Source of the DNA: an uncultured Bacteroidales bacterium
Lineage (GTDB): Bacteria > Bacteroidota > Bacteroidia > Bacteroidales > UBA3663
Direction of reading: 5' to 3'
Assembly (NCBI GenBank): GCA_905236195.1
Contig: CAJOOX010000039.1
Coordinates: forward strand, 1 to 33,967
DNA: 33,967 nucleotides
The notes beneath the pieces are model-generated. The model ran no database searches. It saw only the letters and a list, made by a program, of their open reading frames with translations, and had not been told where the DNA came from. Made by a program: the position numbers and the translations under genes. Positions 7,101 to 29,197 of this stretch are shown here, piece by piece; position 1 is the stretch's first letter; each line of letters begins with the position of its first letter.

Positions 7101-8037
7101 CTGTTCCGAAGCTGGCGGGAATGGCGAAGCTGGGCATGAGCGGAGGATTCTCGATGTCATATTCCTCCACTTTGTCCACAATCTCGACCGTATTGGCCAG
7201 CGCCTCAGGGATATCGGCGAAAATCTCGTTCATCTCGGCAGTTGTCTTGAACCACTCCTGCTTGGAATAACGCATACGCGTGGGGTCATCCAGATCCTTA
7301 CCGGTATTGAGACAGAGCAGGTGGTCGTGGGCCTCGGCATTCTCCTCGTCGACAAAGTGGACGTCGTTGGTACATATCAGTTTAACACCGTGTTTACGGG
7401 CCATCCCGACGAGCCAGGGATTCACCTTCGACTGAAGCACGTATGCTTCGCGATTGCTGTTGGGGTCCACACTGTGGTGACGCTGCAACTCGAGATAATA
7501 GTCTTCGCCAAAAAGCTCCTTGAACCATATGACGGCCTGTTCGGACTTCTGCTCCTCCCCTGCCAGGAAGAGTGCTGGCACTTCACCGGCAATACATGCA
7601 GAACAGCAAATCAGACCCTCGTGATATTTGACGAGCTGTTCGTGGTCAATACGCGGACGCATATAGAAACCATCGGTCCAGCCAATCGACACCAGCTTGA
7701 CAAGATTGTGATAACCGGTCTTGTTCTTGGCCAGCAGAATCAGATGCCAGCCGCTCATATCCTCCCTCGCAGAACGCTGGGCGAGGCTGCGACGCGCACA
7801 ATAGACCTCGCACCCGAAGATGGGTTTACAACGGGGCTTGCCCTCCTTTTCGAGGGCGGCATTCCTGGATTTGGCAATGTCGAAAAACTCCTTGATACCG
7901 AACATATTGCCGTGGTCGGTCACAGCCATGCCAGGCATACCGTCGTTGACCGCCTTATTGAAGATTTTGCTGATGTTGCACTGTCCGTCCAGAATAGAAT
8001 ATTGGGTATGGACATGCAGATGCGCGAATTTTTCCAT
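4192..8037 (-). CDS. dnaE: DNA polymerase III subunit alpha
   Basis: The 1281-aa ORF has an N-terminal PHP domain (FAHLHVHTQYSILDG), the polymerase core (GPGRGSAAGSVVAYCLGITKLDP, FERFLNPDRISLPDIDTDF) and an OB-fold region. Its ATG at 8035-8037 overlaps the upstream gene's stop (TAATG). Confidence 0.97.
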   Translation of the reverse strand: MEKFAHLHVHTQYSILDGQCNISKIFNKAVNDGMPGMAVTDHGNMFGIKEFFDIAKSRNAALEKEGKPRCKPIFGCEVYCARRSLAQRSAREDMSGWHLILLAKNKTGYHNLVKLVSIGWTDGFYMRPRIDHEQLVKYHEGLICCSACIAGEVPALFLAGEEQKSEQAVIWFKELFGEDYYLELQRHHSVDPNSNREAYVLQSKVNPWLVGMARKHGVKLICTNDVHFVDEENAEAHDHLLCLNTGKDLDDPTRMRYSKQEWFKTTAEMNEIFADIPEALANTVEIVDKVEEYDIENPPLMPSFAIPASFGTEEEYRQKFTEEQLFEEFTRDEHGNVVLSQEEAEKKIRKLGGYEKLYRIKFEADYLRHLTMVGAHRLYGDPLSEEVEERILFELHVMKTMGFPGYFLIVQDFINASRNELGVSVGPGRGSAAGSVVAYCLGITKLDPMKYDLLFERFLNPDRISLPDIDTDFDDDGRARVIEWVQDKYGADCVAHIITYGTMATKMVLKDVARVEKVPISQANYLAGLIPDRMPDNAVDEKGKPLKLNLKNCIKINRELQAACESQDPKIYNTMKYAQMLEGNVRGTGVHACGMIIGGKPITDVVPVSVVDDHGTKLLVTQYDGHVIESTGLIKMDFLGLKTLSIMNEALDNIKHSTGDVIDLDTIPIDDPLTYQLYCEGRTVGTFQFESPGMQKYLKELHPTVFGDLIAMNALYRPGPMDYIPSFIARKTGKEEIKYDIPCMEQYLKDTYGITVYQEQVMLLSRLLADFTRGESDALRKAMGKKKKDIVDKMKPKFIEGGKRHGYDPKVLDKIWADWEKFASYAFNKSHAACYSWVAYQTAYLKAHYPAEYMAAVLSRNLKDINTLTKYMDECHKMGLKVKGPDVNLSRERYSVDKEGALRYGLAGIKSVGEGAAEAIVREREANGPYTDIFNFAERIDLSKVNRKCFEALVYSGAFDSLSARVARHQYIGAINLKESFLDSLVRYGQSFQADKQEAENSLFSDFGETAIEIAHPAIPEGVPMSTLERLNKEKEFVGLYLSAHPLDEYKFQLEYACNTKLAEFEHPENLFTRTEIVCGGIVTKWREGYTKKGANYGAITIEDYTGSYELMLWRDDFIKYRNFGKEGLYVLLHLKFGPKWFLHGAEPKKPDDWELQIQQIQQLDQVAETLLRKMTVVVDASKLSTATAKLLGEEIADANRDNNPQTSLFVQLSDPVKDYYVTMASPTRVHVSTTLIDFICAQDGLSCLLNDREVSADIGGAGTEEAEVLSVDDDLPDGNE

Positions 8038-9422
8038 TAACGGATTGTTGTTTTCATTTTATTGATGTAGCGGATGAGCAGCCAGTTGGAGAGCAAGGCC
8101 GAAATAAAATCTGCAATGGGGTGTGTCCACCATACGCCGTTGACTCCATAGAACGGTGGCAATATAAGCAGCAACGGCAACAGGAACAGCAGCTGTCGGG
8201 TAGTGGAAAGAAAGACTGCAGTCTTAGCCTCACGCACCGATTGGAAGAAGGCGGTGATGATAATCTGTCCCCCCACAATGGGAAATGCCATCAGCATGAT
8301 GCGGAGAGCCGGAACAGAGGCATCAAGCATTGCAGCATCGGAGGTAAACATCATAGCCAGCTGACGGGGGAAAAAGGCGATGAGCAGATAGCCGGTCGCC
8401 ATGATGCCCGTAGCCCAACCGTAGGCATGCCATAGGGCTTGTGAGACGCGATTATAGAGTCTGGCTCCAAGATTGAACCCGACAATGGGACGCAGGCCCT
8501 GAGAAAAGCCCAGTGCCATCAGGAAGGCCAGCATCGAGATACGGTTCACAATCCCATAGACACCCACATAACGGTCGCCGTCCGCACCACCATGTTCCAT
8601 GAGGGCGCGGTTGATGAAAATGACTACAACGCAGCCGCAGACGTTGATAAAAAAGGGACTCATGCCGATGGCTATGATTTCACGAATCACCTTGCCGTTA
8701 AAAATCAACCCGAACTTCGAGAAGTGGACAAAATTCTCACGCTGCCAGAAATGATGAACCTCATACGAGAATGCCAGCAACTGTCCCAACACAGTGGCCA
8801 ATGCCGCCCCCCGCATACCCCAGCCGAAGCCGAAGATAAAGAGTGCATCCATAACGATATTGGCAAAGACGGCTATGAGCTGGGCTGTCATCGCTTTCTT
8901 GGGGTGTCCTGTCGATCGCATCTGGTCGTTCATGCCCAGAAAAGTGTGGGTGACGACATTGCCCAACAGGATAATCTGCATGTAGTCACGTGCAAAAGGC
9001 AGCGTGTTCTCCGAGGCACCGAACAGACGGAGCAGCGGATCCAGGAAAACAAGACCCAGCACCGTGATAATCAGTCCGATCGTCACATTCATTCTCAGCA
9101 TGTTGCCGAAGACGATCAGTGCAGCCTTCTGGTTGTTCTCGCCCATGCGAATGGAGGCCAGCGCTCCCGAACCGACACCCATCATGGCTCCGAAGGCCGA
9201 CGAGATATTCATCAGCGGGAAGGTAAGGGCCAGCCCGGCAATGGCAAGAGGACCGGCTCCGTGACCGATGAAAATCGAATCGCAGAGATTATAGATGGAG
9301 GACGCCGACATCGCAATAATGGACGGCGTGGCGTATTCGAGCAGCAACTTGCCGACCGGCTTGGTAGCCAGGTTATAAGACCGCGGATCGCTGAATCGAT
9401 TTTCTATATTTTCTTCTTCCAT
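8037..9422 (-). CDS. MATE family efflux transporter
   Basis: This is a 12-TM-like hydrophobic ORF with the typical MATE N-terminus (KLLLEYATPSIIAMSASSIYNLCDSIFIGHG). The ORF-track start at 9449 is a TTG that sits inside a -7 promoter box, so I place the start at the ATG at 9420-9422 (MEEENIENRF...). Confidence 0.88.
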   Translation of the reverse strand: MEEENIENRFSDPRSYNLATKPVGKLLLEYATPSIIAMSASSIYNLCDSIFIGHGAGPLAIAGLALTFPLMNISSAFGAMMGVGSGALASIRMGENNQKAALIVFGNMLRMNVTIGLIITVLGLVFLDPLLRLFGASENTLPFARDYMQIILLGNVVTHTFLGMNDQMRSTGHPKKAMTAQLIAVFANIVMDALFIFGFGWGMRGAALATVLGQLLAFSYEVHHFWQRENFVHFSKFGLIFNGKVIREIIAIGMSPFFINVCGCVVVIFINRALMEHGGADGDRYVGVYGIVNRISMLAFLMALGFSQGLRPIVGFNLGARLYNRVSQALWHAYGWATGIMATGYLLIAFFPRQLAMMFTSDAAMLDASVPALRIMLMAFPIVGGQIIITAFFQSVREAKTAVFLSTTRQLLFLLPLLLILPPFYGVNGVWWTHPIADFISALLSNWLLIRYINKMKTTIR

Positions 9423-9446
9423 AAAAACAACGTCAAAAGTTGGTCG

Positions 9447-9454
9447 CAAAGTTA
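9447..9454 (-). promoter_or_regulatory. Candidate -7 promoter box (TAACTTTG on the minus strand) for the MATE-dnaE-Cof-symporter(-miaA) transcription unit
   Basis: The plus strand reads caaagtta at 9447-9454, which is TAACTTTG on the minus strand and matches TAnnTTTG. It lies ~25 nt upstream of the ATG at 9422. Downstream genes overlap or have gaps of 11-41 nt. Confidence 0.5.
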
Positions 9455-9534: not shown

Positions 9535-9566
9535 TTTGGTCATCCCGATAATTATTTGTATATTTG
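9535..9566 (+). promoter_or_regulatory. Candidate Bacteroidota promoter for the giant gene (-33 TTTG, -7 TATATTTG)
   Basis: TTTG at 9535-9538 and TATATTTG at 9559-9566 are separated by 20 nt, which fits the Bacteroides sigma-AB consensus. This predicts a 5' leader of ~70-100 nt. Confidence 0.55.
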
Positions 9567-9642: not shown

Positions 9643-12600
9643 ATGATGACAATATTTCATAATACGATCCGTATGAAATTGAAGGCACTGGTTCTCGCAA
9701 CCCTGGCAATCCTCGGTGGCGTGGCTGCTGCAATGCTGTATGCCGGCCCCGTGACAGACACTTGGGACGGAACCTTCGAGAAGCCCCAGGACTGGAAGCT
9801 CGGCACGAAAGACGAGCCCATTCTCATCAACAATGCCGAGGAACTGGCCTACGTACTTGCCAAGTACGACAACACCACCTCCGTGGGTACTGCCTACTAT
9901 AAACTCACATGCGACGTGGACCTCAACAACATCGAGTGGAGTTTCCCCAACTTCAAGGGTATGGTGTCGTTCCTGGGACATTTCGACGGCGATGGTCACA
10001 CCATCCGCAACATCAATGTGAGTGTGCTCCATTCACGTCTGCCCCAGCGCCTGGCCCTCTTCCCCGCCCTGGGCGGCGATGCCAACCACAAGGCTGAGAT
10101 CTGCAACCTGCACGTCGAGAACATCTCGTTCCACCACGCTAATGCCAAAGACGATATGGGGGACGACCTTATCCTTGGCGGTCTCGTGGGCACGATGTAT
10201 CCCAATGCCGAAATTCGCAACTGTACGGTGAGGGGAATGAAAGTAATCAATGAATGCTCCAGTTCGGGAAGGAAAAACGGCAAGGTTTCCTTCATCTCCA
10301 TAGGCCCTCTGGTCGGTGCCTACGAACCCAGCCCCCAGATTTTTACAGAAAACTATTCGAGTCTTGAAGGACAGATTCACAACAGCTTCGGAGAAATCAA
10401 TTATCTCGAAGCCGGCCTCTGGAACCAGAGTGTCACCTTCCATGTGGACAAACAGCAGGGCCGGATTACCGACAAAGACGCCATCGGCAGCACCTTCGAC
10501 AGTAACATACTGTCTGCCCAGATTATCAAGGACAGCGAAACGGACTATCATGTCCAATTGTCGGACAACAGCGAGAAGAAACACAAATATGTGTGGCGTC
10601 TGAACCGTGAGGAACTGAAAGAAACCGGTCCACGCGTAAGCATTCCACACAGCATTTCCGACAATATGCTCAGCGTCGAGGTGATGGATGGCAAGAAAGT
10701 TATTGCCAGCCGCTCCGTCGACATCGAGGCCGAGCCCCTCCACGTGGTCATCACCGATGTCAAGCGTTCGGGAAATAACTACAACCTCACCGCAGCCGTG
10801 CTCTCCAAGGACAAGCAGGACGTTTCCAAAGACTTCAGTTTCTCCTGGCACGACATGGACCGTGCTCACAAGGTCTTCGGCAGAAGCCAGACCCTGACCG
10901 GCGCCGACAGCACCCACTGCTACCACGTCGTTGCCCGTCATCGCAGGTTCCCCTCCTGCATCATCGCAACGTTCTATTCTTTCCACCGTCCCGTCTACGT
11001 GGCTGCCCACGCCATAACCGGCGAGGATGCCAAACGCTATACCCACAACGGCAAGGAATATGCCGAGGGTAATGATGCCAACGACGGAAAATCGCCCGAG
11101 ACAGCGGTCAAGACCCTGAAACGGGCTTACGAACTGCTTAAGACGGAAGCCGAGGGAGGCACCTCCTGGAACAACATGATTGTCATTATGGGTGATTATG
11201 ACGAGGCTGTATTCAACACCCATCACGACCAGTATCAGAAAAAGAGAAATCTCAAATATTTCGTCAAAGACAAACCGGCCACCATTACCGGTCTCTACGG
11301 CAACATCTGCAACGGCCGTTTGAAAATGATCAGCGAGTGCAACGTCATCGATGCCGAGACTCGTTTCGAATCGCTGGTACTGCACGGAAGTGACGACTTC
11401 GACGGCGACATTTTTGTACTCTACGCCCAGGATAACAACCTGACGATGGGCGACGGTCTCCAGATGGAGGACTATGCCGCAATGCCGGCAACACGAGGCT
11501 TCCAGCCCGGCATCAACGCCCCCAACATCTCGGTGTTCGGCGGCTACTACAACAATGACAATCCCGACATCAGACGCCGGGCTCACCGTGTCATATTCTA
11601 TTCTGGGCACTACGGACGCATCATTGCAGGCGACCGCTCCGGACGTGAACTGCCACATACCGGCAACGTGTCGGGTTCGCCGGAGAATCCCATCCGCTCT
11701 TTCGTACGCATAGAGATCGCAAACAACGACAACCCCAAACACTACACCCACGATGTCGCTCTCCTCGTGGGCGGTCAGGCCGACGGTTCGTGCTTTGCCA
11801 CCGACACCATTGAGGTGAATGCCCCGTCTCATGTGGGCCGTGTTATCAGCGGCAATCTCGGCTATGGGCGTGAAGCACATGTCATTGAGAACGGGCAGAC
11901 GGTGACACGTCCTGCCGACTCCTATTTCGGACAGGTGATCTTCAACCTCTACGGCGGAACGATATCCGAGCTCTACGGCAGTTCTCTGGGACGTAACGGA
12001 CACAGCATCCATCCCGACGACGAACTCATCGATTCCTGCCAGACCTATTTCTACGGCAATATTTTCCTCGAACTCTACGGAGGCACTGTCAATGGTGAAG
12101 TCTATGGTGGCGGTGCCGGCGGTGTGGTCGGTCTCGGCAAGGATATCCACCACACGTTCGACCCGCATGTGCCCTATCTGAATCAAGGCCGTCTCACCTA
12201 CGGCATCTATGAACAGGCCAAAGGCAAGATGCCCAAGATTTCCATAGACGGAAAGGAAATCATCGATTTGAGCAAAAGCGAGATTCACGTCGATATCCAG
12301 AATTCCGCTCTTGTAAGGGGCTCGGTCTATGGCGGCGGCTACGGCTACAGTGCCCACCTTCCTACAAGCTACGCTTCGTCTCAAGGCGGATCCGTTTTCG
12401 GCGACATCTTCGTACAGTTGAAGGATAAAGCAGTTGTCGAACACAACATCTTCGGCGGCGGTCGCGGTACGTTGGTTTACTACGACAATCTCGACGATGC
12501 AGGGTACAGCCGTACAGCCTCGGGCATCAGACTCGACAGGAGCAACGTTTCCAGACTGGGCTGTGTCTATGGCAAAGCCTGGATCGACCTTTCCGGCGGA

Positions 12601-15600
12601 CACGTTCAGGAAAGTGTTTACGGCGCCGGTCGCGGTGTGGCCTATCGAGCCAATAGCGAGAACGCCGACATCAACGATGTCCGTCAGATGGCTGCCATCT
12701 ACGGTTCTGCGAATATCCACGTTTCGGGAGACGCACTGTTTGACGAACCGATCTACGGCGGTGGTATGGCCGGCACGGTTTTCAAGACCGGCGAACTTCC
12801 GGAATACGAGGACGGCTGTGCCCACATCGACATCGAAGGCGGACGTTTCCGCAACGCCATCTACGGCGGTGGAAACGGTCTGTTCTCCACCGGACAGAAT
12901 ACCACCCACAAAGGATCGGCCGACATTGAAGGCGACACCTGGATTTATATCCGCGGCGGCGAGTTCGCGTGGTCTGACGAAAAAAACTTCTTCGAGACTG
13001 ACCGTCTCTATAACATAGTGGGAGGCGGACGCCGCTTCTCGGTTGTTCACGGCAATACCCACATTGAAGCCTATCGCTCACTCTTCTCCGAATCGTTCAT
13101 CAGGGAAGCCGGCATCAGCCATTGGGATTACAGCAAGCTCTGGAACAAGCAGTTCTCTCTCATGGGAGGCGGCTACGGCAGTTCTGCCCGCGTAATGGGT
13201 GATACATATGTCACGCTCGATGTCAAGGACGATATCGACGAAAAGGCTGCCCACCACATGTACTTCGGTGTCAGCGGTCGCAACAGGGAATTCGACAGCG
13301 ACGAACCCCGCATGATGCCCCACGTTTCGTTCATCGATGTGCTCGGAGGCGGTTTCACGGGTGCTGTCCACGGTTCGACCCACATCACCATGAAGGGCAA
13401 TACCCTGGTCCGCAATATCTACGGCGGAAGTGTCTACGGCAAGGTGGGGCTGCGCGACTCCCTGCTCAACGAATCCGACAAACTCATCTCCACCAACACG
13501 CGCACCTATACAACCGGAACATACATCAATGTTCTCTCGGGCCTGGCCTACAATGTATTCGGAGGCGGTTTCATGGGAGACGTGACGGGCGAGACGCATG
13601 TCACCATCGGTTCCCAGACCGATGCTGAAGCCAACAAACGGCTCTTCCTGGCTTCGGTTTACGGAGGAAATGACATGAGCGGAAAAATTGCAGGAAGCAA
13701 CAACGAGAACTATGGTGTCAATCTCGACATCTGGGGCGGTACCATCCGTCACAGCGTCTATGGTGCCGGCAACGGACACCTGAGCACCATGCATATTCCC
13801 ACACCCTTCGATACCACGACGACGATTATCACCCTCTTCAATCCCGACGCACATGAATTTGCACTGCCTCATGTGGCTTGCACCAGGATTCGCATGGCCG
13901 GCATTGACGAGAACAACCGTGTGATGCTGGAAGGCTCGTTCTTCGGCGGTGGCAACTGTGCTTCTGTCGGCATCTTCAAGCGCGACTCTCTCTTTGCCGA
14001 CAACAACTTCGGAGCCGAACGCCAAGTACCAGTGCCAAACCGCGGACGTATCTACATCAACCTGGGTTCCCACGTCATGATGCGTTCGTTCTTCATGGGT
14101 TCCGACGGCAAGGGGTTGCTCAAGAACATCCCCTACCACAAACATGCAGGCAAATGGATCAAGGGCTTCCGTTCCAACGAGGACTTCCAGCACTACTGCT
14201 CGATGATTGACTTTGCAGGCATGCCTCAGCTTACCTTCAATGCCGACAACTCATTCCACAACAACCATCCGATCATCGACTTCTTCGGTGACCGCCGCGA
14301 ATTCGAGACTCCCGGAGAAATGGATGCCCGGGATATTGACATCAGCGTATTCTTCGGTGGCAGTAACCGGGGTTCGATGACGTCCGACTCCACTTATATT
14401 TTGACGTTGCCCCCAGGCCTCACCATCCACAAGTCGGTGACAGGCGGTTGCAACAATGCCTATCTCTCCTACACCGAGACCGAAGGCCTCGATATGGGTG
14501 TCAAGCGTGAGCGCATCGGCGGGTTCATCCCCATGAACCTCAACACTCCGCAGTACCACCGCATGCAGATCAACGTGTTCAATAAATTCGAACCCGTAAC
14601 CTACAAAGTCAACCCTACGACTGGCAAAACCAAATTCTACGGCTGCAATATGTATGCGGGTTGCTTCTACAGAGGCATCATCTACGGTGCTTCGTCTATC
14701 AATTTCCATGCGGATATCGTAGGCGAAGATTCCAACATGTCGGAAGAAGGCCCCATCTTTAACGCCTCCAACTGGCTGAACACCGACGTCGGCATCCTCT
14801 ACGGCGGCGGATACGGCGACTCAACCGAGGTCATCGGCAACACCTACATTTCCATGACGGGTGCACGTCTCAATGGGACGGTCTGCATCCCCAACCTGCT
14901 TGATGCATTCGGCGGCGGTATGAGAGGTGCTGTGGTGGGACGCACCCAGGTGACCTACGACGGCGAAGTGAAGGGCGTTTCTCCCCTCCTGGCTACGCGC
15001 AAGGGGCTGTGGGGCAAGATGTTCGGCGGCGGACGACAGGGTTCCATCGTCAGCAAGAGCGTCCTCATGCCCGGCCACAAGGCTCCGGCTGGAACCGGCA
15101 CGCGCGTATATGTCTATAGCGGTATCGTCGATCAGGTCTTCGGCGGTGCCCGTATGGCCGACATCGAAGGCGGCACATACGTCGAAATCAACGACCACTC
15201 CAAATACCATTTCCACACCATCGTCCGTAAGGTTTATGGTGGCAACGACGTGGCAGGCTACATCGGAGTGGGCAAGGTGAAGCCCTATCTGGAGGACAAA
15301 CACACCAGTCGCAACACGTTCGTGCGCATCACCGAGGATTCCAAGGCGGACGGATCCTATACCGGATTCCCGTTCGTGGGTGAAGTCTTTGCGGCCGGCA
15401 ACGGCAACTACGGTCCCCACCTCGAGAACTATTCACGCATCCGCCGTTCCTACGAGGGAGGATACCTCCAGACCGACCGCGACTCTGTGCTCCTCACCGG
15501 CAAACGGCGTCCCCATGTCGATTCTGCGTATGTCGAGGTCACAGGCGGTTCCATCATGAACCTCTATGGCGGTGGCAACAACTCGGTGGTCGACAAGGAT

Positions 15601-17226
15601 ATCGTCATTTCGGTACGTTACAACGACAATAACGTCTCCAAACGCGCCACTTTCGACAACGACATCATGACCGACTGCTACCAGCGGGGCAAGTGGCTGA
15701 CTGCGATGAAATCTATCCGCGACGGTCTGGTCGATAACGGTCATCAGATTTATCCCGAGGACAATATACACCGCATCTTCGGCGGCAACAACGAGATGGA
15801 TATGAACGTACAGCCTAAGTGGCGTCTGCGCAAGGGTAATGCCGGCACCGTCTACGGCGGCTGCAACGTCGGCTCTGTCATCTACTACAACGAGGCTGCC
15901 GACCGCAACTTCCACACGGGTGTAGGCGGCATCCCTGGTTATACTCTCAATCTCAACTACCCCGAATTCTCGGCCAAGAATGTATTCGGCGGTTCCCGTA
16001 TGGGCACTGTCCAGGCATCCCGCATGACCTACACCCCGGATGGAAGCCGTATCGAAAAAATCGAGCCCGTCACCTTCGCCTCCACTCAGTATGGCGTCAC
16101 CGTGAATATCTCAAACGGCAACTTCGGACGTGTATTCGGCGGCAACGACATCACCGGTACCATCAACAACGGCACCCATATCGAAATCTCCGGCGGAGCC
16201 TGTGACGAGATTTACGGCGCCGGAAACGGTGAATATATCTACAAGGTCGACTCCACCGTCAACAAGGTGACCGAAATGTGGGACAAGGAGAACCTCCAGT
16301 GGTACTACCTCGTTCCCACCATCGACTCACTTGGGGGCGACAAACCCTCCGACATTGAGAAGATCAGGGTCATCAACCGCTACCGTCCCAACATCGCAAA
16401 ATCGTTCATCGAGATTGCAGGCGGTATGCGTCGTGACATGTCGCGCCGAATGACATACGTCTACGACGCCATCTACTGCGGCGGCAACTGTTCTACGATT
16501 CTGGGACCCGATGGCGGACAGGGCAAGGTACGTCTTGATATCGGCGGACAGATTGTGGCCAACAAGGTCTTCCTCGGCTCCAACGGTGTCAATCTCATCA
16601 AGGACGAATATGCCAAGAGAATTAGCCAATACAACAACCTCTCGGGTAATCCTTATGCGACGGACAGGGACGGCAAAACCCTCCTCGACCGATATATGGA
16701 GGCTGTGACAATGTACGCCTTCCCCGAGGACTTCCAGCTCCGTCGCAACTACACCGAATGTTTCATCGGCGATTTCTTCCTAGGCGGCAACCGCGGATCC
16801 ATCCGCACCCACGGAGACATCAACATCACCTTCCCCTCCTCACTCACCATATTCGGTAAGATTGTGGGCGGCTCCAACCGCGGCGACATCACTTGTCCTG
16901 AAATCACCGGCGGACAGAACATCACCCATCAGGGCGGTATCATCTGGGACGGTGAAGGCTCCCAGCCGAACATCCTGCTCAAAATCAATTGTCTCTACAA
17001 GCCGCAGATAATGTCCAAGGATGCGGACAATAAATACTACCATCTGACACCGGATGTTCAGGGCACCTCTATCGTACCCGTCTACAGCGGTTGCTTCGAG
17101 AGTGGTATTGTCGAAGGTTCCATTGATGCCGAGATTACCGACACTAACGAAGGTATTTCTATCTCTTCCGAAACCGAAGAAGAGAAACAATCATCCGAAC
17201 CGCAGTTCTTCGAAATTCCAATGTAA
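9643..17226 (+). CDS. Giant (2527 aa) secreted repeat protein with a GLUG-like N-terminal head followed by a long putative parallel beta-helix built from Gly-turn repeats; putative adhesin or surface fibre
   Basis: A single uninterrupted ORF. A signal-peptide-like segment, MKLKALVLATLAILGGVAAAMLYAG, starts at the third ATG (9673), which may be the true start. The head carries AEELAYVL...YKLTCDVDL...FLGHFDGDGHTIRNINV...LILGGLVGT...IRNCTVRG, a GLUG-type pattern. GNDANDGKSPETAVKTLKRAYELL at 11068 resembles a beta-helix entry. More than 30 h-[YF]-G-G-G/N turns follow (VYGGGAGG, IFGGGRGT, IYGGGNGL, VFGGNDITG...). The C-terminal tail is acidic. Confidence 0.88.
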   Translation: MMTIFHNTIRMKLKALVLATLAILGGVAAAMLYAGPVTDTWDGTFEKPQDWKLGTKDEPILINNAEELAYVLAKYDNTTSVGTAYYKLTCDVDLNNIEWSFPNFKGMVSFLGHFDGDGHTIRNINVSVLHSRLPQRLALFPALGGDANHKAEICNLHVENISFHHANAKDDMGDDLILGGLVGTMYPNAEIRNCTVRGMKVINECSSSGRKNGKVSFISIGPLVGAYEPSPQIFTENYSSLEGQIHNSFGEINYLEAGLWNQSVTFHVDKQQGRITDKDAIGSTFDSNILSAQIIKDSETDYHVQLSDNSEKKHKYVWRLNREELKETGPRVSIPHSISDNMLSVEVMDGKKVIASRSVDIEAEPLHVVITDVKRSGNNYNLTAAVLSKDKQDVSKDFSFSWHDMDRAHKVFGRSQTLTGADSTHCYHVVARHRRFPSCIIATFYSFHRPVYVAAHAITGEDAKRYTHNGKEYAEGNDANDGKSPETAVKTLKRAYELLKTEAEGGTSWNNMIVIMGDYDEAVFNTHHDQYQKKRNLKYFVKDKPATITGLYGNICNGRLKMISECNVIDAETRFESLVLHGSDDFDGDIFVLYAQDNNLTMGDGLQMEDYAAMPATRGFQPGINAPNISVFGGYYNNDNPDIRRRAHRVIFYSGHYGRIIAGDRSGRELPHTGNVSGSPENPIRSFVRIEIANNDNPKHYTHDVALLVGGQADGSCFATDTIEVNAPSHVGRVISGNLGYGREAHVIENGQTVTRPADSYFGQVIFNLYGGTISELYGSSLGRNGHSIHPDDELIDSCQTYFYGNIFLELYGGTVNGEVYGGGAGGVVGLGKDIHHTFDPHVPYLNQGRLTYGIYEQAKGKMPKISIDGKEIIDLSKSEIHVDIQNSALVRGSVYGGGYGYSAHLPTSYASSQGGSVFGDIFVQLKDKAVVEHNIFGGGRGTLVYYDNLDDAGYSRTASGIRLDRSNVSRLGCVYGKAWIDLSGGHVQESVYGAGRGVAYRANSENADINDVRQMAAIYGSANIHVSGDALFDEPIYGGGMAGTVFKTGELPEYEDGCAHIDIEGGRFRNAIYGGGNGLFSTGQNTTHKGSADIEGDTWIYIRGGEFAWSDEKNFFETDRLYNIVGGGRRFSVVHGNTHIEAYRSLFSESFIREAGISHWDYSKLWNKQFSLMGGGYGSSARVMGDTYVTLDVKDDIDEKAAHHMYFGVSGRNREFDSDEPRMMPHVSFIDVLGGGFTGAVHGSTHITMKGNTLVRNIYGGSVYGKVGLRDSLLNESDKLISTNTRTYTTGTYINVLSGLAYNVFGGGFMGDVTGETHVTIGSQTDAEANKRLFLASVYGGNDMSGKIAGSNNENYGVNLDIWGGTIRHSVYGAGNGHLSTMHIPTPFDTTTTIITLFNPDAHEFALPHVACTRIRMAGIDENNRVMLEGSFFGGGNCASVGIFKRDSLFADNNFGAERQVPVPNRGRIYINLGSHVMMRSFFMGSDGKGLLKNIPYHKHAGKWIKGFRSNEDFQHYCSMIDFAGMPQLTFNADNSFHNNHPIIDFFGDRREFETPGEMDARDIDISVFFGGSNRGSMTSDSTYILTLPPGLTIHKSVTGGCNNAYLSYTETEGLDMGVKRERIGGFIPMNLNTPQYHRMQINVFNKFEPVTYKVNPTTGKTKFYGCNMYAGCFYRGIIYGASSINFHADIVGEDSNMSEEGPIFNASNWLNTDVGILYGGGYGDSTEVIGNTYISMTGARLNGTVCIPNLLDAFGGGMRGAVVGRTQVTYDGEVKGVSPLLATRKGLWGKMFGGGRQGSIVSKSVLMPGHKAPAGTGTRVYVYSGIVDQVFGGARMADIEGGTYVEINDHSKYHFHTIVRKVYGGNDVAGYIGVGKVKPYLEDKHTSRNTFVRITEDSKADGSYTGFPFVGEVFAAGNGNYGPHLENYSRIRRSYEGGYLQTDRDSVLLTGKRRPHVDSAYVEVTGGSIMNLYGGGNNSVVDKDIVISVRYNDNNVSKRATFDNDIMTDCYQRGKWLTAMKSIRDGLVDNGHQIYPEDNIHRIFGGNNEMDMNVQPKWRLRKGNAGTVYGGCNVGSVIYYNEAADRNFHTGVGGIPGYTLNLNYPEFSAKNVFGGSRMGTVQASRMTYTPDGSRIEKIEPVTFASTQYGVTVNISNGNFGRVFGGNDITGTINNGTHIEISGGACDEIYGAGNGEYIYKVDSTVNKVTEMWDKENLQWYYLVPTIDSLGGDKPSDIEKIRVINRYRPNIAKSFIEIAGGMRRDMSRRMTYVYDAIYCGGNCSTILGPDGGQGKVRLDIGGQIVANKVFLGSNGVNLIKDEYAKRISQYNNLSGNPYATDRDGKTLLDRYMEAVTMYAFPEDFQLRRNYTECFIGDFFLGGNRGSIRTHGDINITFPSSLTIFGKIVGGSNRGDITCPEITGGQNITHQGGIIWDGEGSQPNILLKINCLYKPQIMSKDADNKYYHLTPDVQGTSIVPVYSGCFESGIVEGSIDAEITDTNEGISISSETEEEKQSSEPQFFEIPM

Positions 17227-17244
17227 TACTTCCGCTCAAAACTG

Positions 17245-17276
17245 AAAAACAGCTCCGGGTCTCGGAGCTGTTTTTT
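17245..17276. terminator. Bidirectional rho-independent terminator shared by the giant gene (+) and the HAD hydrolase gene (-)
   Basis: The sequence aaaaa-CAGCTCCG-ggtct-CGGAGCTG-tttttt has a perfect 8-bp GC-rich stem (17250-17257 / 17263-17270). It is flanked by an A-run and a T-run, so it works on both strands, and it sits between convergent genes. Confidence 0.75.
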
Positions 17277-17931
17277 ATCCTTCCACAATACGGAAGATTT
17301 CTTCGGGCCGGTCGGCCAGGTATTCTGGATGTTCGGCTTCCAGTTCGGTCCGGGGCCGGAATCCCCAGGTGACGCCACAGGCCGCTATCCCCGCATTGTG
17401 CGCCGTGCGTATATCCACATTGCTGTCGCCTACATAGAGCGTCGTCTCCCGCCTCATCCCGCCTGCTGCAATGATGGCGTTCACGATGGCCGGATCGGGT
17501 TTCACTGGCTGTCCCTCCCGGTTGCCGCACACAGCCGCCCACGGCGTCTCCGGGAAATAGAACGGTATCAGTTTCTTCACCGCCGCATCATACTTGTTGC
17601 TGGCCACGGCTAAACAAGCTCCGGCGGCTGCCAACGAGGACAACAGTTCCGGGATGCCGGAATAGGGTCGCGTTGCGTCCCGTCCGTGGGCTTCGTAATA
17701 TGGGGTGAACAGGTCTTTCACCTTATTTATATATATAGGAGTACGTAACTCCTCCGGCAGCGAACGCTCAAAGAGTTTCATCACTCCGTTGCCAACCTTC
17801 CAGCGGTAATCTTCCATGGTCCATGTAGGAAGGCCCAACTGAACCAGTGCCTGATTGACCGCATTGCCCAAGTCGGCAATCGTATTGAGCAGCGTTCCGT
17901 CCAAATCAAATATTACACTTTCGTATTTCAT
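17275..17931 (-). CDS. HAD-IA family hydrolase (phosphoglycolate phosphatase-like)
   Basis: The 218-aa ORF has motif I VIFDLDGTLLNT, motif II AVASNK and motif IV YVGDSNVDIRTAHNAG. Confidence 0.9.
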   Translation of the reverse strand: MKYESVIFDLDGTLLNTIADLGNAVNQALVQLGLPTWTMEDYRWKVGNGVMKLFERSLPEELRTPIYINKVKDLFTPYYEAHGRDATRPYSGIPELLSSLAAAGACLAVASNKYDAAVKKLIPFYFPETPWAAVCGNREGQPVKPDPAIVNAIIAAGGMRRETTLYVGDSNVDIRTAHNAGIAACGVTWGFRPRTELEAEHPEYLADRPEEIFRIVEG

Positions 17932-17936
17932 GACCG

Positions 17937-17944
17937 CAAAGATA
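17937..17944 (-). promoter_or_regulatory. Candidate -7 box (TATCTTTG on the minus strand) directly upstream of the HAD hydrolase ATG
   Basis: The plus strand reads caaagata at 17937-17944. The box ends only 5 nt before the ATG (17931), implying a leaderless or near-leaderless mRNA. Confidence 0.4.
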
Positions 17945-17983
17945 GCGTTTTTCGGTGACTTTGCAAAAAAAATGACAATTTAT

Positions 17984-18014
17984 TTTGTCATGTCTGTTTT
18001 TTTTCCTATCTTTG
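17984..18014 (+). promoter_or_regulatory. Candidate promoter for the nucleotidyltransferase gene (-33 TTTG, -7 TATCTTTG)
   Basis: TTTG at 17984-17987 and TATCTTTG at 18007-18014 have a 19-nt spacer. The ATG at 18027 implies a very short leader. Confidence 0.55.
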
Positions 18015-19394: not shown

Positions 19395-19478
19395 CCCGTG
19401 GTCCTTTTACTTTTATTCTATATATTCCGACTCCCCCCTCGTCTTCTCCCTCCTTTCAAGAAGGGGTGGGGTGAATCG

Positions 19479-20342
19479 TTATTCGCTCATAATCGGCTTG
19501 TGCACTGCCACCACCGCCCAATGGTTCCGGCTCTTGCTGTACCCGAACTCAAAACCCAGGCGTTCCGCCTTGGCCCGGATCAGCGGTATGTCTTCTTCAA
19601 AGAATCCGCTCATAAGCAGGACTCCGTCATATTTCAGCACACGCCCGTAAGTCTCCATGTCGGCAATCAGCACATTGCGGTTGATATTAGCCACTATCAG
19701 GTCATAAGAGCCGTACTCCTGCAACAAAGAAGCGTCGCCACAGTCCACCGTCACGATTTCGTTCACACCATTCACCATCACATTGTCGGTCGCATTGGCG
19801 GCAACCCAGTCGTCGATTTCAATGGCTCTGACACGTTTGGCTCCGCATTTGGCACACAGAATTGCCAGCACTCCCGTGCCGGTGCCCATGTCCAGACAGG
19901 TCTTGCCCTTCAGTGGGACTCGAAGTATTTCCTCGAGCAACTGGGCCGTCGTCTCATGGTGACCCGACCCGAACGACATCCGGGGTTCAATCACTATATC
20001 ATAGCGGCAGGCGGGGATATCGGTAGCCAACGGAGAATGAACCGCACAGAGTTTGCCGATCACGATGGGCTCTACATTCTGCTGCTCCTCCCACTCCAGA
20101 TTCCAGTCTTCGGTGGCTACTTCCTGGGCTGTAAACGAACATGTGACGTCCGGTACGGGAAAATCTTCCAGCACTTTCTGTACGCCTGTGGCCGAATACT
20201 TGTCCGTCGGACAGTAGGCTAGCAGCCCGTCTTTGGCATTCGTGAAACTTTCATACCCCAGTGGCGCAAGCAGCGATGCCAGGATATCGCATGTGGCTTC
20301 ACTCATCGGCTGTGGATGCAGATGCAGTTCGATATAATTCAT
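19479..20342 (-). CDS. prmA: Ribosomal protein L11 methyltransferase
   Basis: The ORF has a PrmA-like N-terminal domain (MNYIELHLHPQPMSEATCDILASLL...) and the SAM-binding motif CLDMGTGTGVLAILCAKCGA...AIEID. I place the start at the ATG at 20340-20342 rather than the ORF-track start at 20429, because a -7 box lies at 20370-20377. Confidence 0.88.
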   Translation of the reverse strand: MNYIELHLHPQPMSEATCDILASLLAPLGYESFTNAKDGLLAYCPTDKYSATGVQKVLEDFPVPDVTCSFTAQEVATEDWNLEWEEQQNVEPIVIGKLCAVHSPLATDIPACRYDIVIEPRMSFGSGHHETTAQLLEEILRVPLKGKTCLDMGTGTGVLAILCAKCGAKRVRAIEIDDWVAANATDNVMVNGVNEIVTVDCGDASLLQEYGSYDLIVANINRNVLIADMETYGRVLKYDGVLLMSGFFEEDIPLIRAKAERLGFEFGYSKSRNHWAVVAVHKPIMSE

Positions 20343-20369
20343 AGAGTCGAAGAATTTAGTTTTGTGCTG

Positions 20370-20377
20370 CAAATTTA
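20370..20377 (-). promoter_or_regulatory. Candidate -7 box (TAAATTTG on the minus strand) for prmA
   Basis: The plus strand reads caaattta at 20370-20377, ~28 nt upstream of the ATG at 20342. Confidence 0.45.
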
Positions 20378-20492
20378 ATAAAAATTCCCATTTCGGGATA
20401 CAATTCATCGATAAAAATGAACAATTCATTGATTTTTTTGAAGATTTAGGGTTAAATTTGCGTTTTTGATGTCTGAAAATTAAAAAAAATGC

Positions 20493-20549: not shown

Positions 20550-21881
20550 ATGAAAAAGATGATTCTGGCTGCACTCGCAATGGCGGTGTCCTTGCCGGCA
20601 GCAACTTTCACTTATGCGCAGTATGATGACGACATCTACTTCAGCAGCAGTAGCGCCGAGAGGTACGAACCCGTCCGGGAGACAGTGATGGAAGAATGGT
20701 CCACCAATGCCAACAACGACTGGGACATCGACTCCTACAATCGTCGCTCCGCCGATGTGCCCCTCTATTCCGCATCGACTGATGATACCTACACCCAAAG
20801 TGTAACGTCCAACAGGCACCAGAACTTCCAGTTCGGTACCGAACAGGCCTCTGCCGACGACAATATCATCCACGACACAGTCTATGTGGTTGAAAACTAT
20901 TATTATACCGACCGCATCCGCCGGTTCCACAATCCCTGGTGCTCCTACCATATCTGGAATCCCTATTGGGATGTCGCCTACTGGGATCCGTTCTACTGGG
21001 ATTACTGCTACTGGGATCCGTGGTGGTACGTGTCTCCCTCATTCGGGTTCCACTACGGCAGCTGGTACTGGGGTTGGAACTACGGCTACTACACGGGCTG
21101 GTACGGCGGCTGGTATTCCCCCTTCTACCGTCCCTTCCCCCACTATTACGGGCCTTACTATGGTGGCAGCCATCACGGATGGCATTCCCTTCCCAACCAG
21201 GGTCCCCGCACCAACAACATGGGCGGCAGCTATGCCCGCAACAACCGTAACGGTGCACGGCGTCCGGACAACCGTCACTACACGGCCGATGCTCGCCGCA
21301 GCGGCATCGAGGGCGGCGGGGCTTCCTATTCCACTCGCGGGGCTTCTGCCAACCGCAACAGCAACATGCGGATGAGCAACGACCAGATCTCGCGTAACGC
21401 CGGAACCCGCTCCGACAGCCGCAACCTCACCACCGGTGGAACTACCGTTCGCAGTAACCGCGGTGAAAACTACACCCGTTCCGCTGCAACCGTTGCCAAC
21501 CGGGCCCAGGCCAACAACAGCAATGCGCGCCGGCAGGCCAATGGCGTACGCCAGAACAGCAGCGGACGCACCTACCGCTCTACCGAACGCGCCGCTTCCA
21601 GCAGCAATTCGTTCAATCGCAGTACCGCGACCCGGTCCTCTTCCTACCGCAGCGGCTCATCGCGTTCCTACAACAACGCGTCCAGCTCCAGCAACAACTC
21701 CAGCAACAGCTCCAGCAGCTCTTCTACCCGTTCCTACACGCCTTCCAACTCGTCGTCTTCCTCCTACTCCGGCGGAAGCTACTCTGGTGGCCGTTCCAGC
21801 GGAAGCAGCGGAAGCTTCGGTGGTCGATCCGGCGGTAGTAGCGGAAGCTTCGGTGGTCGCTCCGGCGGCGGTCGTCGTTAA
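20550..21881 (+). CDS. Secreted low-complexity protein with a signal peptide, an extreme Trp/Tyr-rich block and a Ser/Arg/Asn/Gly-rich disordered C-terminal half
   Basis: The signal peptide is MKKMILAALAMAVSLPAATFTYAQ. The aromatic block is WNPYWDVAYWDPFYWDYCYWDPWWYVSPSFGFHYGSWYWGWNYGYYTGWYGGWYSPFYRPFPHYYGPYYGG. About 220 aa rich in S, R, N, G, T and A follow, ending GGRSSGSSGSFGGRSGGSSGSFGGRSGGGRR. A promoter box lies upstream and the gap to the next gene is short (41 nt to the ATG at 21923). Confidence 0.78.
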   Translation: MKKMILAALAMAVSLPAATFTYAQYDDDIYFSSSSAERYEPVRETVMEEWSTNANNDWDIDSYNRRSADVPLYSASTDDTYTQSVTSNRHQNFQFGTEQASADDNIIHDTVYVVENYYYTDRIRRFHNPWCSYHIWNPYWDVAYWDPFYWDYCYWDPWWYVSPSFGFHYGSWYWGWNYGYYTGWYGGWYSPFYRPFPHYYGPYYGGSHHGWHSLPNQGPRTNNMGGSYARNNRNGARRPDNRHYTADARRSGIEGGGASYSTRGASANRNSNMRMSNDQISRNAGTRSDSRNLTTGGTTVRSNRGENYTRSAATVANRAQANNSNARRQANGVRQNSSGRTYRSTERAASSSNSFNRSTATRSSSYRSGSSRSYNNASSSSNNSSNSSSSSSTRSYTPSNSSSSSYSGGSYSGGRSSGSSGSFGGRSGGSSGSFGGRSGGGRR

Positions 21882-21922
21882 CCCCTTTCCTCTCTTTAAT
21901 ATTTGATAATATTTTGAATCTG

Positions 21923-25951: not shown

Positions 25952-25982
25952 TTTGTCATATCGTCTTAGTGTCCTATCTTTG
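25952..25982 (+). promoter_or_regulatory. Candidate promoter of the dual-ABC/GntR/efflux operon (-33 TTTG, -7 TATCTTTG)
   Basis: TTTG at 25952-25955 and TATCTTTG at 25975-25982 have a 19-nt spacer, ~34 nt upstream of the ATG at 26016. Confidence 0.55.
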
Positions 25983-26852: not shown

Positions 26853-26864
26853 TTTTCAACCAGC

Positions 26865-27758: not shown

Positions 27759-28093
27759 AATATCTTGATGCGATAGGTTACGTCCTCCTCGTGGCTGGCA
27801 TCCTCTGCATGCTTCTCTGGCCTGCAGGCGGTCCGTGGATATTCTCTGTCGGTGCGGCCATGGTGGCCATCGACCACCTTACCCAGGCCTACAAGGGCAA
27901 CAACCTGCGCCTGCGCCGCATGAGCCGTATCCGCGCCATCTGTGGCATCTGCTACGTTATCGCCGCGTTCTATGTCTTCCGCGGTGAGGGACGCTACTGG
28001 CTCCCCGTCACCATCGTGGGGGCCGTCCTCGAACTCTACTCTCAATACGTAATAACAAAAGAAAACCGCAAAGACAATGGAATTTCAGAATAA
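27755..28093 (+). CDS. Small integral membrane protein (112 aa)
   Basis: The ORF has three to four hydrophobic segments (YVLLVAGILCMLLW, IFSVGAAMVAI, ICGICYVIAAFYVF, LPVTIVGAVLELY). Its start is coupled to the upstream gene (ATGA overlap) and its codon usage matches the neighbours. Confidence 0.65.
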   Translation: MKYLDAIGYVLLVAGILCMLLWPAGGPWIFSVGAAMVAIDHLTQAYKGNNLRLRRMSRIRAICGICYVIAAFYVFRGEGRYWLPVTIVGAVLELYSQYVITKENRKDNGISE

Positions 28094-29143: not shown

Positions 29144-29150
29144 GCCCCCC

Positions 29151-29186: not shown

Positions 29187-29197
29187 AAATTAAAAAT

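Follow-up and report, generated by a model that had tools for sequence, protein, structure and literature searches.

The window, by which we mean the whole stretch of 33,967 nucleotides that was analysed, derives from an uncultured gut-type Bacteroidales bacterium. The subject of this analysis is a single, well conserved gene of 7.6 kb. The coding sequence and its flanking expression signals are as follows.

9535..9566, + strand: Bacteroidetes-type promoter, with -33 element TTTG (9535-9538), a 20-nt spacer and -7 element TATATTTG (9559-9566).
9643..17226, + strand: coding sequence for 2,527 aa, an uninterrupted ORF from ATG to the TAA stop codon at 17224-17226.
17243..17277, both strands: bidirectional intrinsic terminator, common to the convergent HAD gene, with a perfect 15-bp stem, a 5-nt loop, an A-tract and a T-tract.

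An earlier note on this DNA, made from its letters alone, had described a real, monocistronic gene with its own promoter and a strong bidirectional terminator 3' of the ORF, and these points were borne out. The gene lies between a divergent MATE gene upstream (8037-9449) and a convergent HAD gene downstream (17275-17931). A pattern search for TTTG-N19-21-TAnnTTTG found 4 sites in the window where 0.10 were expected, and all four are just 5' of gene starts. The terminator folds with a dG of -22 kcal/mol (z -6.3; 0 of 200 shuffles folded equally well) and overlaps the stop codon of the HAD gene. Pattern search and folding were used instead of a sigma-70 promoter/terminator scanner, which is unsuited to Bacteroidetes promoters and missed the real terminator owing to the limits it sets on loop and stem. 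As previously described, housekeeping genes flank the ORF: miaA, a Na/Ala symporter, HAD, dnaE and MATE precede it, and HAD, a CCA-type nucleotidyltransferase and prmA follow. Housekeeping genes adjoin the query-clade gene in three lineages, the synteny is stable in an 82%-identical orthologue, and the GC content of the gene is that of its flanks. An antisense ORF of 1,009 aa (10033..13062, minus strand) is not conserved where the locus was compared between orthologues and was dismissed as an artefact of base composition.

Along the encoded protein (the query) the following regions were delimited.

9643..9744, + strand: signal peptide, aa 1-34, with a basic n-region, a hydrophobic core and a small residue at -1; predicted SPI cleavage between LYA and GP.
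9754..10422, + strand: GLUG-type head module, aa ~38-260, from sub-threshold Pfam Glug and head-profile matches.
10516..11007, + strand: two putative tandem Ig/FN3-like beta-sandwich domains, aa ~292-455, from AF2 and borderline Foldseek matches, the range being estimated from the strand pattern.
11050..11175, + strand: beta-helix entry or cap segment, aa 470-511, GNDANDGKSPETAVKTLKRAYELLK, invariant among orthologues.
11176..17127, + strand: parallel beta-solenoid body, aa ~512-2495, from motif counts, AF2 and weak Foldseek matches.
13300..14712, + strand: super-module copy 1, aa ~1220-1690, from sliding sub-profiles.
15040..17022, + strand: C-module, aa ~1800-2460, including super-module copy 2 (aa ~2070-2495); common to ~250 clusters of giant proteins, the majority T9SS-sorted.
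17128..17223, + strand: variable acidic C-terminal tail, aa 2496-2527, with no T9SS sorting domain; AF2 pLDDT <50.

The signal peptide was read from the translation and has no lipobox Cys. All orthologues carry such an SPI-type leader, which ends right before a conserved x-D-x-W-(D/N)-G and agrees with the signal-peptide-like N-terminus first noticed. The assignment of the head to the GLUG type was upheld only in part. Against Pfam Glug (PF07581) the isolated head scored 17.7 bits and the full protein 11.4 bits, below the gathering cut-off of 20.5 bits, but a head profile did match modules of the PF07581-annotated proteins P0025 and P0027 (E 1e-13 to 2e-19, with 2e-19 for P0025). This profile matched 15 non-orthologues. 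Among them are Firmicutes-like surface proteins that carry PF07581 and several copies of the module; the N-terminal ends of T9SS giants of 5 kaa were matched as well. Some distant relatives pair head modules with GH16 domains. Behind the head, a region of ~250 aa had been left without assignment. Residues ~257-420 of AF2 model 1 are all beta (pLDDT 70-88), and the best Foldseek PDB matches are tandem FN3/Ig pairs at a borderline E~1e-3 (none at E<=0.001), which place two Ig/FN3-like domains there. At the sequence level this region is essentially specific to the query clade. The motif of the entry segment also opens the beta-helix regions of P0025 and P0038, and in AF2 the rungs begin at aa ~512, after a cap helix.

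The solenoid body consists of degenerate rungs with a minimum spacing of ~25 aa, interrupted by helical or loop insertions. Its core turn, [hydrophobic]-[YF..]-G-[GSA]-[GN..] or in short h-[YF]-G-G-[GN], is present in 36 copies at aa 778-2408, compared to 12.3 +/- 3.1 in shuffled sequences, in agreement with the repeat region placed at nt ~11940-16890 by the earlier note. The longer module of 16-21 aa, in the strict form in which it had been written, was found only ~5 times (0.01 expected), and the count of more than 30 copies therefore holds for the turn alone. The relative P0011 has a regular unit of 24-25 aa. No DNA-level repeat was found in the gene, and a BLAST of the query against itself gave no internal repeats. 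Sliding sub-profiles of the orthologue alignment did however reveal duplication of a super-module: aa 1251-1683 are colinear with aa 2070-2493 (E down to 1e-11), aa 1221-1342 match aa 1751-1875 (E 2e-19), and aa 1208-1678 of orthologue P0004 are matched by query aa 2038-2512. In 134 aligned copies of the C-module, 97 columns are at least 80% identical, of which 42 are G, 14 are N and 7 are Y, and the conserved columns contain no catalytic-type residue set. The acidic tails differ between orthologues, and all query-clade members end at one conserved point, VYxGC(F/Y)xSGxVEG.

Full-length orthologues share 37-98% identity at a near-constant length of 2,409-2,527 aa, and the ORF is intact in every one of them. 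The earlier note had suggested looking for variation in length and copy number; length is conserved among orthologues and copy number is constant between relatives, and the repeat is therefore not a dynamic array. Against the 82%-identical orthologue dN/dS is 0.108 and low in every region, compared to 0.02-0.155 for the housekeeping neighbours. The one split ORF, from a public MAG that was the sole related MAG in the contig scan, reflects a contig break, the gene lying across two contig ends. An exhaustive search of 1.84 billion protein clusters returned only 259 relatives, most of them 3-5.6 kaa long and ending in a T9SS sorting domain (CTD). A local CTD profile, seeded from P0009, whose tail passes TIGR04183 (24.5 bits, cut-off 23), detected the CTD in 105 of 188 relatives, and most of the others are fragments. 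Through head, entry segment, solenoid and C-module, the query runs colinear with the 5-kaa forms as far as their residue ~3,400. It ends where the colinearity ends, and thus does not have the C-terminal third and the T9SS type A sorting domain of those members. The term orphan given to the gene is apt for its context, in which no partner gene is conserved over three different orthologue contexts, but not for its evolution, since the gene is a CTD-less short form in a rare giant family of ~260 clusters.

The proposal that the repeat may be an undescribed family gained support from searches of curated libraries. Pfam 2025 (whole protein and six segments, E<=10), NCBIfam (June 2026, whole protein) and PHROGs (whole protein) returned only the sub-threshold Glug match. 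As had been suspected, the repeat is neither the Chlam_PMP nor the PATR repeat: these models and Beta_helix were unmatched in Pfam even at E<=10. An idealised YGGGN array from P0011 gave no Pfam match, and PDB sequence searches with the single protein, a 9-sequence profile and the relative P0009 gave none. Literature searches likewise turned up no description of such a family. Both the rung repeat and the C-module of ~650 aa are new, with no counterpart in Pfam, NCBIfam, PHROGs or the PDB.

Two AF2 models were built on alignments of only 9-10 sequences (pLDDT 71 and 78, pTM 0.66 and 0.82), and consist almost entirely of short beta-strands. Model 2 used orthologues only, because alignment A4 had put full-length ~4-kaa relatives in the wrong repeat register. 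When Foldseek was run with both models on the PDB and with model 2 on a viral library, no match reached E<=0.001. For the repeat body, all nine of the top PDB matches were right-handed beta-helix proteins (E 0.03-2.6, TM <0.2), with Fap2 (9qe7), IgA1 protease (3h09), HxuA (4rt6) and Hap (3syj) among these weak neighbours. The general style of a parallel beta-helix adhesin, suggested before any search, agrees with the only structural neighbours found, all of them weak, and across HMM and structure searches no confident match to a characterised family appeared. The solenoid may be right-handed, and the rung count suggests a rod roughly 20-30 nm long.

With a probability of roughly 0.55, we read the protein as an extracytoplasmic, rigid, adhesin-like fibre, the short form of an undescribed giant family. 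It would be exported by Sec and its signal peptide cleaved to leave a mature, rod-like extracytoplasmic chain made of a GLUG-type beta-helical head, two Ig-like domains and a very long parallel beta-solenoid. The solenoid would open at a pectate-lyase-style cap (GNDANDGKSPETA...) and run for ~2,000 residues in rungs of ~25 aa, each closed by the tight h-[YF]-G-G-[GN] glycine turn, and the body would have grown by duplication of the ~450-aa super-module. Such a chain would most likely serve as a rigid, length-constrained fibre or adhesin-like spacer presenting binding surfaces, with the head and Ig domains as putative surfaces at one end and the family-wide C-module at the other. An extracellular adhesive role is inferred, and the extracellular reading is supported by the 105 of 188 relatives that carry a T9SS CTD. 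Because T9SS anchoring is impossible for this protein, it may be released or held non-covalently.

The export route was approached through the known systems. Cargo of T9SS type A bears a C-terminal, Ig-like sorting domain of ~70-100 aa (TIGR04183); neither the query nor orthologue P0004 gave an NCBIfam match to it at E<=1, and the local CTD profile matched none of the 14 query-clade members. Cargo of T9SS type B usually has an adjacent PorP/SprF-like gene; TIGR04131 was unmatched in NCBIfam and no such neighbour is present. Pfam gave no match to the autotransporter models PATR (PF12951) and beta-barrel (PF03797), the C-terminus being solenoid plus a disordered acidic tail. For two-partner secretion, the query has no TPS or haemagglutinin-repeat Pfam match, and the 9.6 kb before the gene and the 16.7 kb after it contain no TpsB or POTRA gene. 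The query likewise has no pilin operon, vWA domain or CTD of the kind found with Mfa5-type pilus subunits. Two candidate partners in the window were rejected. A FadL-like barrel 4.7 kb downstream, considered as a PorV-like partner, fell short of the threshold (26 bits, cut-off 90), and neither the P0004 nor the P0008 context contains it. A MacB/HlyD-type pump (28.5-33.6 kb), weighed as an exporter, is unlinked and was rejected on general grounds, a folded 2,500-aa solenoid being, we assume, an implausible substrate for it. With no T9SS CTD, lipobox, autotransporter barrel or TPS domain in the query clade, no known outer-membrane route could be assigned.

This absence of a known outer-membrane translocation signal, with the CTD missing from 14 of 14 clade members, fits a second reading, in which the protein, once its sorting domain was lost, remained within the periplasm or on the inner side of the outer membrane and works there as a stiff strut or ruler rather than as a surface fibre. 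The strict conservation of length, purifying selection at the level of housekeeping genes and housekeeping neighbours in three lineages also point that way. However, relatives with the same modules are mostly T9SS cargo, and thus extracellular, and head modules of this type are found in surface proteins of Gram-positive-type organisms. Neither AsmA/DUF490 (AsmA/TamB) nor SprA_N/TIGR04189 (SprA/Sov), the periplasm-spanning families, was matched in Pfam or NCBIfam, and we know of no precedent for a periplasmic beta-helix of 2,500 aa. We regard this envelope-internal placement as unlikely, at about one chance in five.

A polysaccharide-active enzyme, that is a pectate-lyase-fold lyase or hydrolase with a very long carrier domain, was also considered. 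Pectate-lyase-fold proteins have an N-terminal cap that the entry segment resembles, the weak Foldseek matches included structures of polygalacturonase, pectate lyase, PL6 and GH110, and GH16 domains are joined to head modules in some distant relatives. These enzyme matches reached only E 0.9-8, however, and no Pfam lyase, hydrolase or Beta_helix model was matched even at E<=10. The residues conserved across the family are a scaffold of G, N and Y with no acidic or basic catalytic cluster, and the locus has no polysaccharide-utilisation context. The protein is probably not an enzyme, and we hold the enzymatic reading to be improbable.

A protein that is colinear with the 5-kaa T9SS forms over their first ~3,400 aa alone, and that has no CTD, could also be a decaying remnant, a non-functional pseudogene of a T9SS giant truncated by loss of its 3' third. 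Yet the ORF is intact in all full-length orthologue clusters down to 37% identity, each region shows a dN/dS of 0.11, a promoter and a terminator of its own flank the gene, and all clade members share the end point noted above. The intact orthologues, the selection and the conserved end point effectively refute this reading. Beta-helix fibres are common in phages and the best match in the viral Foldseek library had E 2e-3, but cargo of a mobile element (a beta-helix of the phage tail-fibre or depolymerase type, or the delivery arm of a polymorphic toxin) is the least credible explanation, given that PHROGs returned nothing, viral Foldseek probabilities were <=0.21 with TM <0.2, GC content equals that of the flanks, synteny with housekeeping genes is stable in the 82%-identical orthologue, no integrase, immunity or toxin domain is present, and the protein ends in conserved scaffold and a short acidic tail instead of a variable toxin.

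Giant beta-helical proteins are familiar bacterial surface fibres, and the adhesin-like fibre that we favour is not new in overall type. Type V passengers and exoproteins (Fap2, Hap, IgA1 protease, Hbp and the TpsA protein HxuA) are likewise long, rigid, parallel beta-helix rods and serve as adhesins or carriers. The query differs from them in having no barrel, PATR or TPS domain, in its rung motif and in its export logic, and structural similarity is low (TM <0.2). Chlam_PMP proteins (PF02415) share a short Gly-rich motif once per rung of a predicted beta-helix, but h-[YF]-G-G-[GN] has no FxxN partner and the Pfam model is unmatched at E<=10. In PF07581 GLUG proteins (Gram-positive surface, IgA1-protease-type) the modules are homologous to the query head (aa ~38-260); they occur 5-11 times in Firmicutes-like giants, whereas the query has one copy, fused to a solenoid that is absent there. 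True homologues are the giant T9SS type A relatives of Bacteroidales (3-5.6 kaa), in which YGGG-type rungs are found as in the query. These relatives, for example the 5-kaa P0044, are ~1,500-2,000 aa longer and carry a sorting domain, both of which the query clade does not have. None of them is characterised or named.

Three of these relatives (P0013, P0017 and P0010; ~4 kaa, T9SS-sorted) lie 7-72 nt 3' of runs of genes for Mfa_like_1, a type V pilin family, and at each locus a second giant gene follows. The query clade has no such operon linkage. All three examined relatives lie right after Mfa-like pilin genes, which suggests that type V pilus-like systems of gut Bacteroidales have giant accessory proteins of a class not yet studied. 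In Porphyromonas gingivalis, Mfa5 is a T9SS-dependent accessory subunit of the type V Mfa1 fimbriae and the last in its operon (PMC8512630). The relatives, not the query, resemble it in being last after the pilins, in the T9SS CTD, in tandem large paralogues and in variable N-terminal halves (PMC8512630). No sequence homology to Mfa5 was detected and there is no vWA domain, and the query has neither such an operon nor the CTD.

The query sub-clade is conserved and under selection, but sorting domain and operon alike have been lost from it. A more specific proposal, which we regard as unlikely, is that the CTD-less clade is a functional offshoot of pilus-associated, T9SS-sorted giant adhesins that uses an envelope route outside T9SS, lipoprotein export and type V secretion. 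If true, the clade would have an unrecognised outer-membrane signal or partner, or would have taken on a new function as a strut of constrained length in the periplasm or envelope. The wider family would represent an unrecognised class of giant beta-solenoids that serve type V pilus-like operons as tip or accessory proteins and are made of a repeat not found in Pfam, NCBIfam or the PDB. The gene raises the concrete, testable question of how, or whether, a 2,500-aa solenoid without a known signal crosses the outer membrane. With its domain boundaries and seed alignments, the analysis at least lays out a new family of repeat and domains, which would allow better annotation of several hundred very large 'hypothetical proteins'.

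The giant gene is an ATG ORF of 2,527 aa that runs without interruption from 9643 to 17226 on the plus strand. The MATE gene upstream (8037-9449, minus strand) is divergent and the HAD gene downstream (17275-17931, minus strand) convergent, so that the giant ORF stands alone on its strand. Its GC content is that of its flanks. The promoter fits the Bacteroides-type -33/-7 consensus TTTG/TAnnTTTG; a pattern search for TTTG-N19-21-TAnnTTTG returned four matches in the window against 0.10 expected, and all four lie just upstream of gene starts. The signals and neighbours are as follows:

9535-9538 (TTTG), 20-nt spacer, 9559-9566 (TATATTTG), plus strand: promoter of the giant gene, from sequence reading
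17937-17967, minus strand; 17984-18014, plus strand; 25952-25982, plus strand: exact matches to the promoter pattern, each ending TATCTTTG, just before a gene start
17243-17277: terminator, a perfect 15-bp stem flanked by an A-tract and a T-tract; dG -22 kcal/mol, z-score -6.3
Upstream side of the giant gene: miaA, Na/Ala symporter, HAD, dnaE, MATE
Downstream side: HAD, CCA-type nucleotidyltransferase, prmA
Further downstream: unknown 443-aa protein, FadL-like barrel, uvrD, then ABC, GntR, MacB-like and HlyD genes

Two of the three additional promoter sites stand back to back between HAD and CCA and point in divergent directions. The terminator overlaps the stop codon of the convergent HAD gene and can therefore serve both genes. 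ORF analysis, pattern search and stem folding values thus bear out the earlier note's description of a single giant ORF with its own promoter and terminator. Against the orthologue of 82% identity, dN/dS is 0.108 overall and 0.08-0.15 in every region, within the range of its neighbours (symporter 0.02, CCA enzyme 0.109, 443-aa protein 0.155, the highest in the region). The giant gene is real and under selection, with its own expression signals.

Several other ORFs of the window deserve mention. On the minus strand inside the giant gene lie ORFs of 1,009 aa (10033-13062), 371 aa, 199 aa and others. The longest was rejected as a gene and is a composition artefact, since it is closed in the orthologous loci L005, L003 and L004; such an ORF could mislead gene callers. 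A 274-aa plus-strand ORF (19398-20222) with no family match overlaps prmA (19479-20429, minus strand; NF001785, 294 bits) and is probably spurious. The 443-aa protein, which matched nothing in Pfam or NCBIfam, is followed 32 nt on by a 552-aa outer-membrane barrel of the FadL family (20550-23572 for the pair, plus strand; Toluene_X E 1e-9, PorV_fam only 26 bits against a cut-off of 90). This pair is also present in the 82% relative (L005). At 26016-33637 (plus strand) lie an ABC ATPase, unknown membrane proteins, a GntR regulator, a second ABC ATPase, two MacB-type permeases and an HlyD-family adaptor. This cluster is a tripartite efflux-type system; we considered it as an exporter of the giant protein and dismissed it.

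The repeat body and the C-module (aa ~1800-2460) of the giant protein are uncatalogued. Neither NCBIfam nor PHROGs matched the protein, Pfam gave no match to the solenoid segments or to an idealised array even at E<=10, and PDB sequences were matched neither with the single protein nor with a nine-sequence profile. The library searches being near-empty, signatures of Chlam_PMP, PATR, Beta_helix, TPS, autotransporter barrels, AsmA/TamB and SprA are absent, as the earlier note had supposed for the first two. Glycine makes up 12.3% of the protein. The turn [hydrophobic]-[YFLIVMCW]-G-[GASC]-[GASN..], with the surrounding consensus h-[YF]-G-G-[GN]-x-[G]-[G]-x-h, is found at 36 places from aa 778 to 2408, where shuffled sequences give 12.3 +/- 3.1. 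A count above 30 therefore holds for the turn, but not for the full module h-x-h-x-G-G-x-h-x-x-x-h-Y-G-G-G, of which only five strict copies exist (0.01 expected). Turn-to-turn spacing is irregular, from 18 to 110 aa, the shortest regular spacings being near 25-26 aa. The ideal form is found in a distant relative, P0011, as nine consecutive units of 24-25 aa (NVxIxGGxIxxVYGGGNxAxVxxT); this was the array used in the Pfam search. There is no DNA-level tandem repeat in the giant gene. With sliding sub-profiles of the orthologue alignment, aa 1251-1683 were colinear with aa 2070-2493, and aa 1221-1342 matched aa 1751-1875 (E 2e-19). The repeat body thus grew by duplication of a super-module of ~450 aa.

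AlphaFold2 models of aa 36-1235 (10-sequence alignment; pLDDT 71.4, pTM 0.66) and aa 1328-2527 (nine sequences; pLDDT 77.7, pTM 0.82) both consist of short beta-strands nearly throughout, with a few helices at non-repeat insertions. An SPI-type signal peptide precedes xDxW(D/N)G in all full-length orthologues, and the modelled protein is predicted to be Sec-exported, with a GLUG-type head, tentatively two Ig-like domains and a parallel beta-solenoid of ~2,000 aa. The head (aa ~38-260) stays below the Pfam Glug cut-off of 20.5 (11.4 bits with the full protein, 17.7 with the head alone), but is homologous to GLUG-type modules present in 5-11 copies in Firmicutes-like surface giants. Flg_new, GH16 or SLH domains, or a membrane anchor at the C-terminus, occur in some of these giants; P0026-P0032, of 2-3.9 kaa (thousand aa), have 3-11 copies of the module with a period of ~300-350 aa. 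The head therefore belongs to a surface module in wide use and is separate from the YGGG solenoid. For the ~250 aa that the earlier note left unassigned, Foldseek against PDB returned tandem FN3/Ig-like pairs at a borderline E~1e-3 (growth-hormone receptor, SGBP-B and GhpA fragments), and the strand pattern tentatively places such a pair at model residues ~257-420 (aa ~292-455). The entry segment GNDANDGKSPETAVKTLKRAYELL, invariant among orthologues, also opens the beta-helix regions of two relatives (P0025, P0038); in the model it is a cap helix, with first rungs at aa ~512. The solenoid had no significant neighbour in PDB or in a viral structure library. Its best PDB matches were Fap2 (9qe7, E 0.03), H. 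influenzae IgA1 protease (3h09), HxuA (4rt6), polygalacturonase, Hap, Hbp and pectate lyase, each of them a right-handed parallel beta-helix matched with a TM below 0.2. Motif counting gives at least 36 rungs and the ~140 modelled strands ~48, from which the rod would be roughly 20-30 nm long.

The family is rare. Word-indexed searching of 5.8 billion clusters yielded 25 proteins, profile searching 37; exhaustive HMMER with aa 1328-2527 against 1.84 billion 50%-identity representatives gave only 259 matches at E<=1e-3, 115 of them at E<=1e-30. Full-length orthologues form ~7 clusters (2,409-2,527 aa, identity 37-98%), all ending in VYxGC(F/Y)xSGxVEG and a short, variable acidic tail. The host is an uncultured Bacteroidales known from MAGs alone. 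In CALBPV01, the only GTDB representative genome recovered, the orthologue is split between contigs 132 and 24 (L001 1958-6076, L002 3-3509) at contig ends, apparently by an assembly break within it and not by disruption, which shows how such genes drop out of MAG annotations. Beyond the orthologues, the entry and first rungs (aa 461-850) are common to P0011, P0044, P0045 and P0056, the rungs at aa 900-1150 to Fn3_assoc/CHB_HEX_C_1 giants, and the C-module to 160 proteins. In an alignment of 134 C-modules, identity reaches at least 80% in 97 columns (G 42, N 14, Y 7, V 6 and others), the hallmark of glycines in turns, ladders of Asn and stacked aromatic residues.

The family consists mostly of type IX secretion (T9SS) cargo, and the giant protein itself lacks both a sorting domain and a partner gene. 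Most of its relatives have 3-5.6 kaa and a T9SS sorting domain (CTD) at the C-terminus; the tail of P0009 passes TIGR04183, and a local CTD profile matched 105 of 188 relatives, the exceptions being mostly fragments. The same profile matched none of the 14 members of the clade of short orthologues. The 5-kaa forms P0044, P0048, P0051, P0056, P0057 and P0061 are colinear with the whole giant protein, matching profile positions 20-235, 473-1485 and 1631-2485 before a further ~1,500-2,000 aa to the CTD, and the clade ends exactly where this colinearity ends. The clade is the CTD-less short form of the 5-kaa architecture. T9SS signals need not be canonical: Flavobacterium johnsoniae secretes ChiA by this system through a C-terminal region recognised by neither of the TIGRFAM CTD models. 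The final conserved element of the clade is, however, also internal in the T9SS relatives, and what follows it is a variable tail with predicted disorder, which speaks against a concealed signal at the terminus. The ~4-kaa forms have the C-module as their first ~700 aa, right after the signal peptide. P. gingivalis type A cargo is anchored through its C-terminus (PMC11969387); if these forms are anchored likewise, the C-module end would be distal from the cell.

Genomic context also separates the clade from its relatives. The 82% orthologue shares the synteny of the window, and the 37-43% orthologues occupy another housekeeping locus, adjoining lgt, rpe and xseA. No partner gene is kept across these contexts, so the earlier designation as an orphan among housekeeping genes was correct. 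Right behind the distant orthologues P0004 and P0008, gene calls place small ORFs of 47 aa (L003 9731-9874) and 59 aa (L004 7930-8109); the window has none, as the terminator directly follows the stop codon. T9SS relatives lie at three independent loci 7-72 nt after, and co-directional with, two to five Mfa_like_1 genes (type V pilin family), with DUF3575 and DUF5119 also upstream at L010. Behind each pilin-linked relative of ~4,000 aa comes a second giant gene, of roughly 4,000 to 8,300 aa:

L008/L009, 10001-22264: pilin-linked ~4,000-aa T9SS relative
L010, 10001-22495: the same
L011, 10001-21757: the same
L012, 8846-20602: the same

This arrangement is apparently an undescribed operon type with a giant in the Mfa5 position. 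P. gingivalis Mfa5, whose gene closes the mfa operon, requires both its CTD and T9SS; it has variable N-terminal halves and is sometimes duplicated in tandem (PMC8512630). Its place after pilin genes is mirrored by the T9SS relatives but not by the giant gene, and no sequence similarity to Mfa5 or any solved protein was found.

We infer that the giant protein works outside the cytoplasm as a rigid fibre or adhesin-like spacer of constrained length, by analogy with the weakly resembling beta-helical passengers and from the extracellular, pilin-operon setting of the three examined relatives (P0013, P0017, P0010). The main rival is retention in the periplasm or envelope; any outer-membrane crossing would proceed without CTD, lipobox or type V machinery. 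An enzyme is poorly supported, no catalytic-type constellation being conserved across the aligned C-modules. So are a pseudogene (no internal stops occur among the orthologues) and a mobile element. The suggestion of an undescribed repeat family or fibre from an orphan gene is supported, with the addition that the protein is an unsorted short form of a rare giant T9SS-cargo family. Bacteroidota commonly encode giant uncharacterised beta-helix proteins, and the overall type is already known; what is concrete and testable here is an uncatalogued family, its association with pilin operons and a sorting-domain loss that is conserved.
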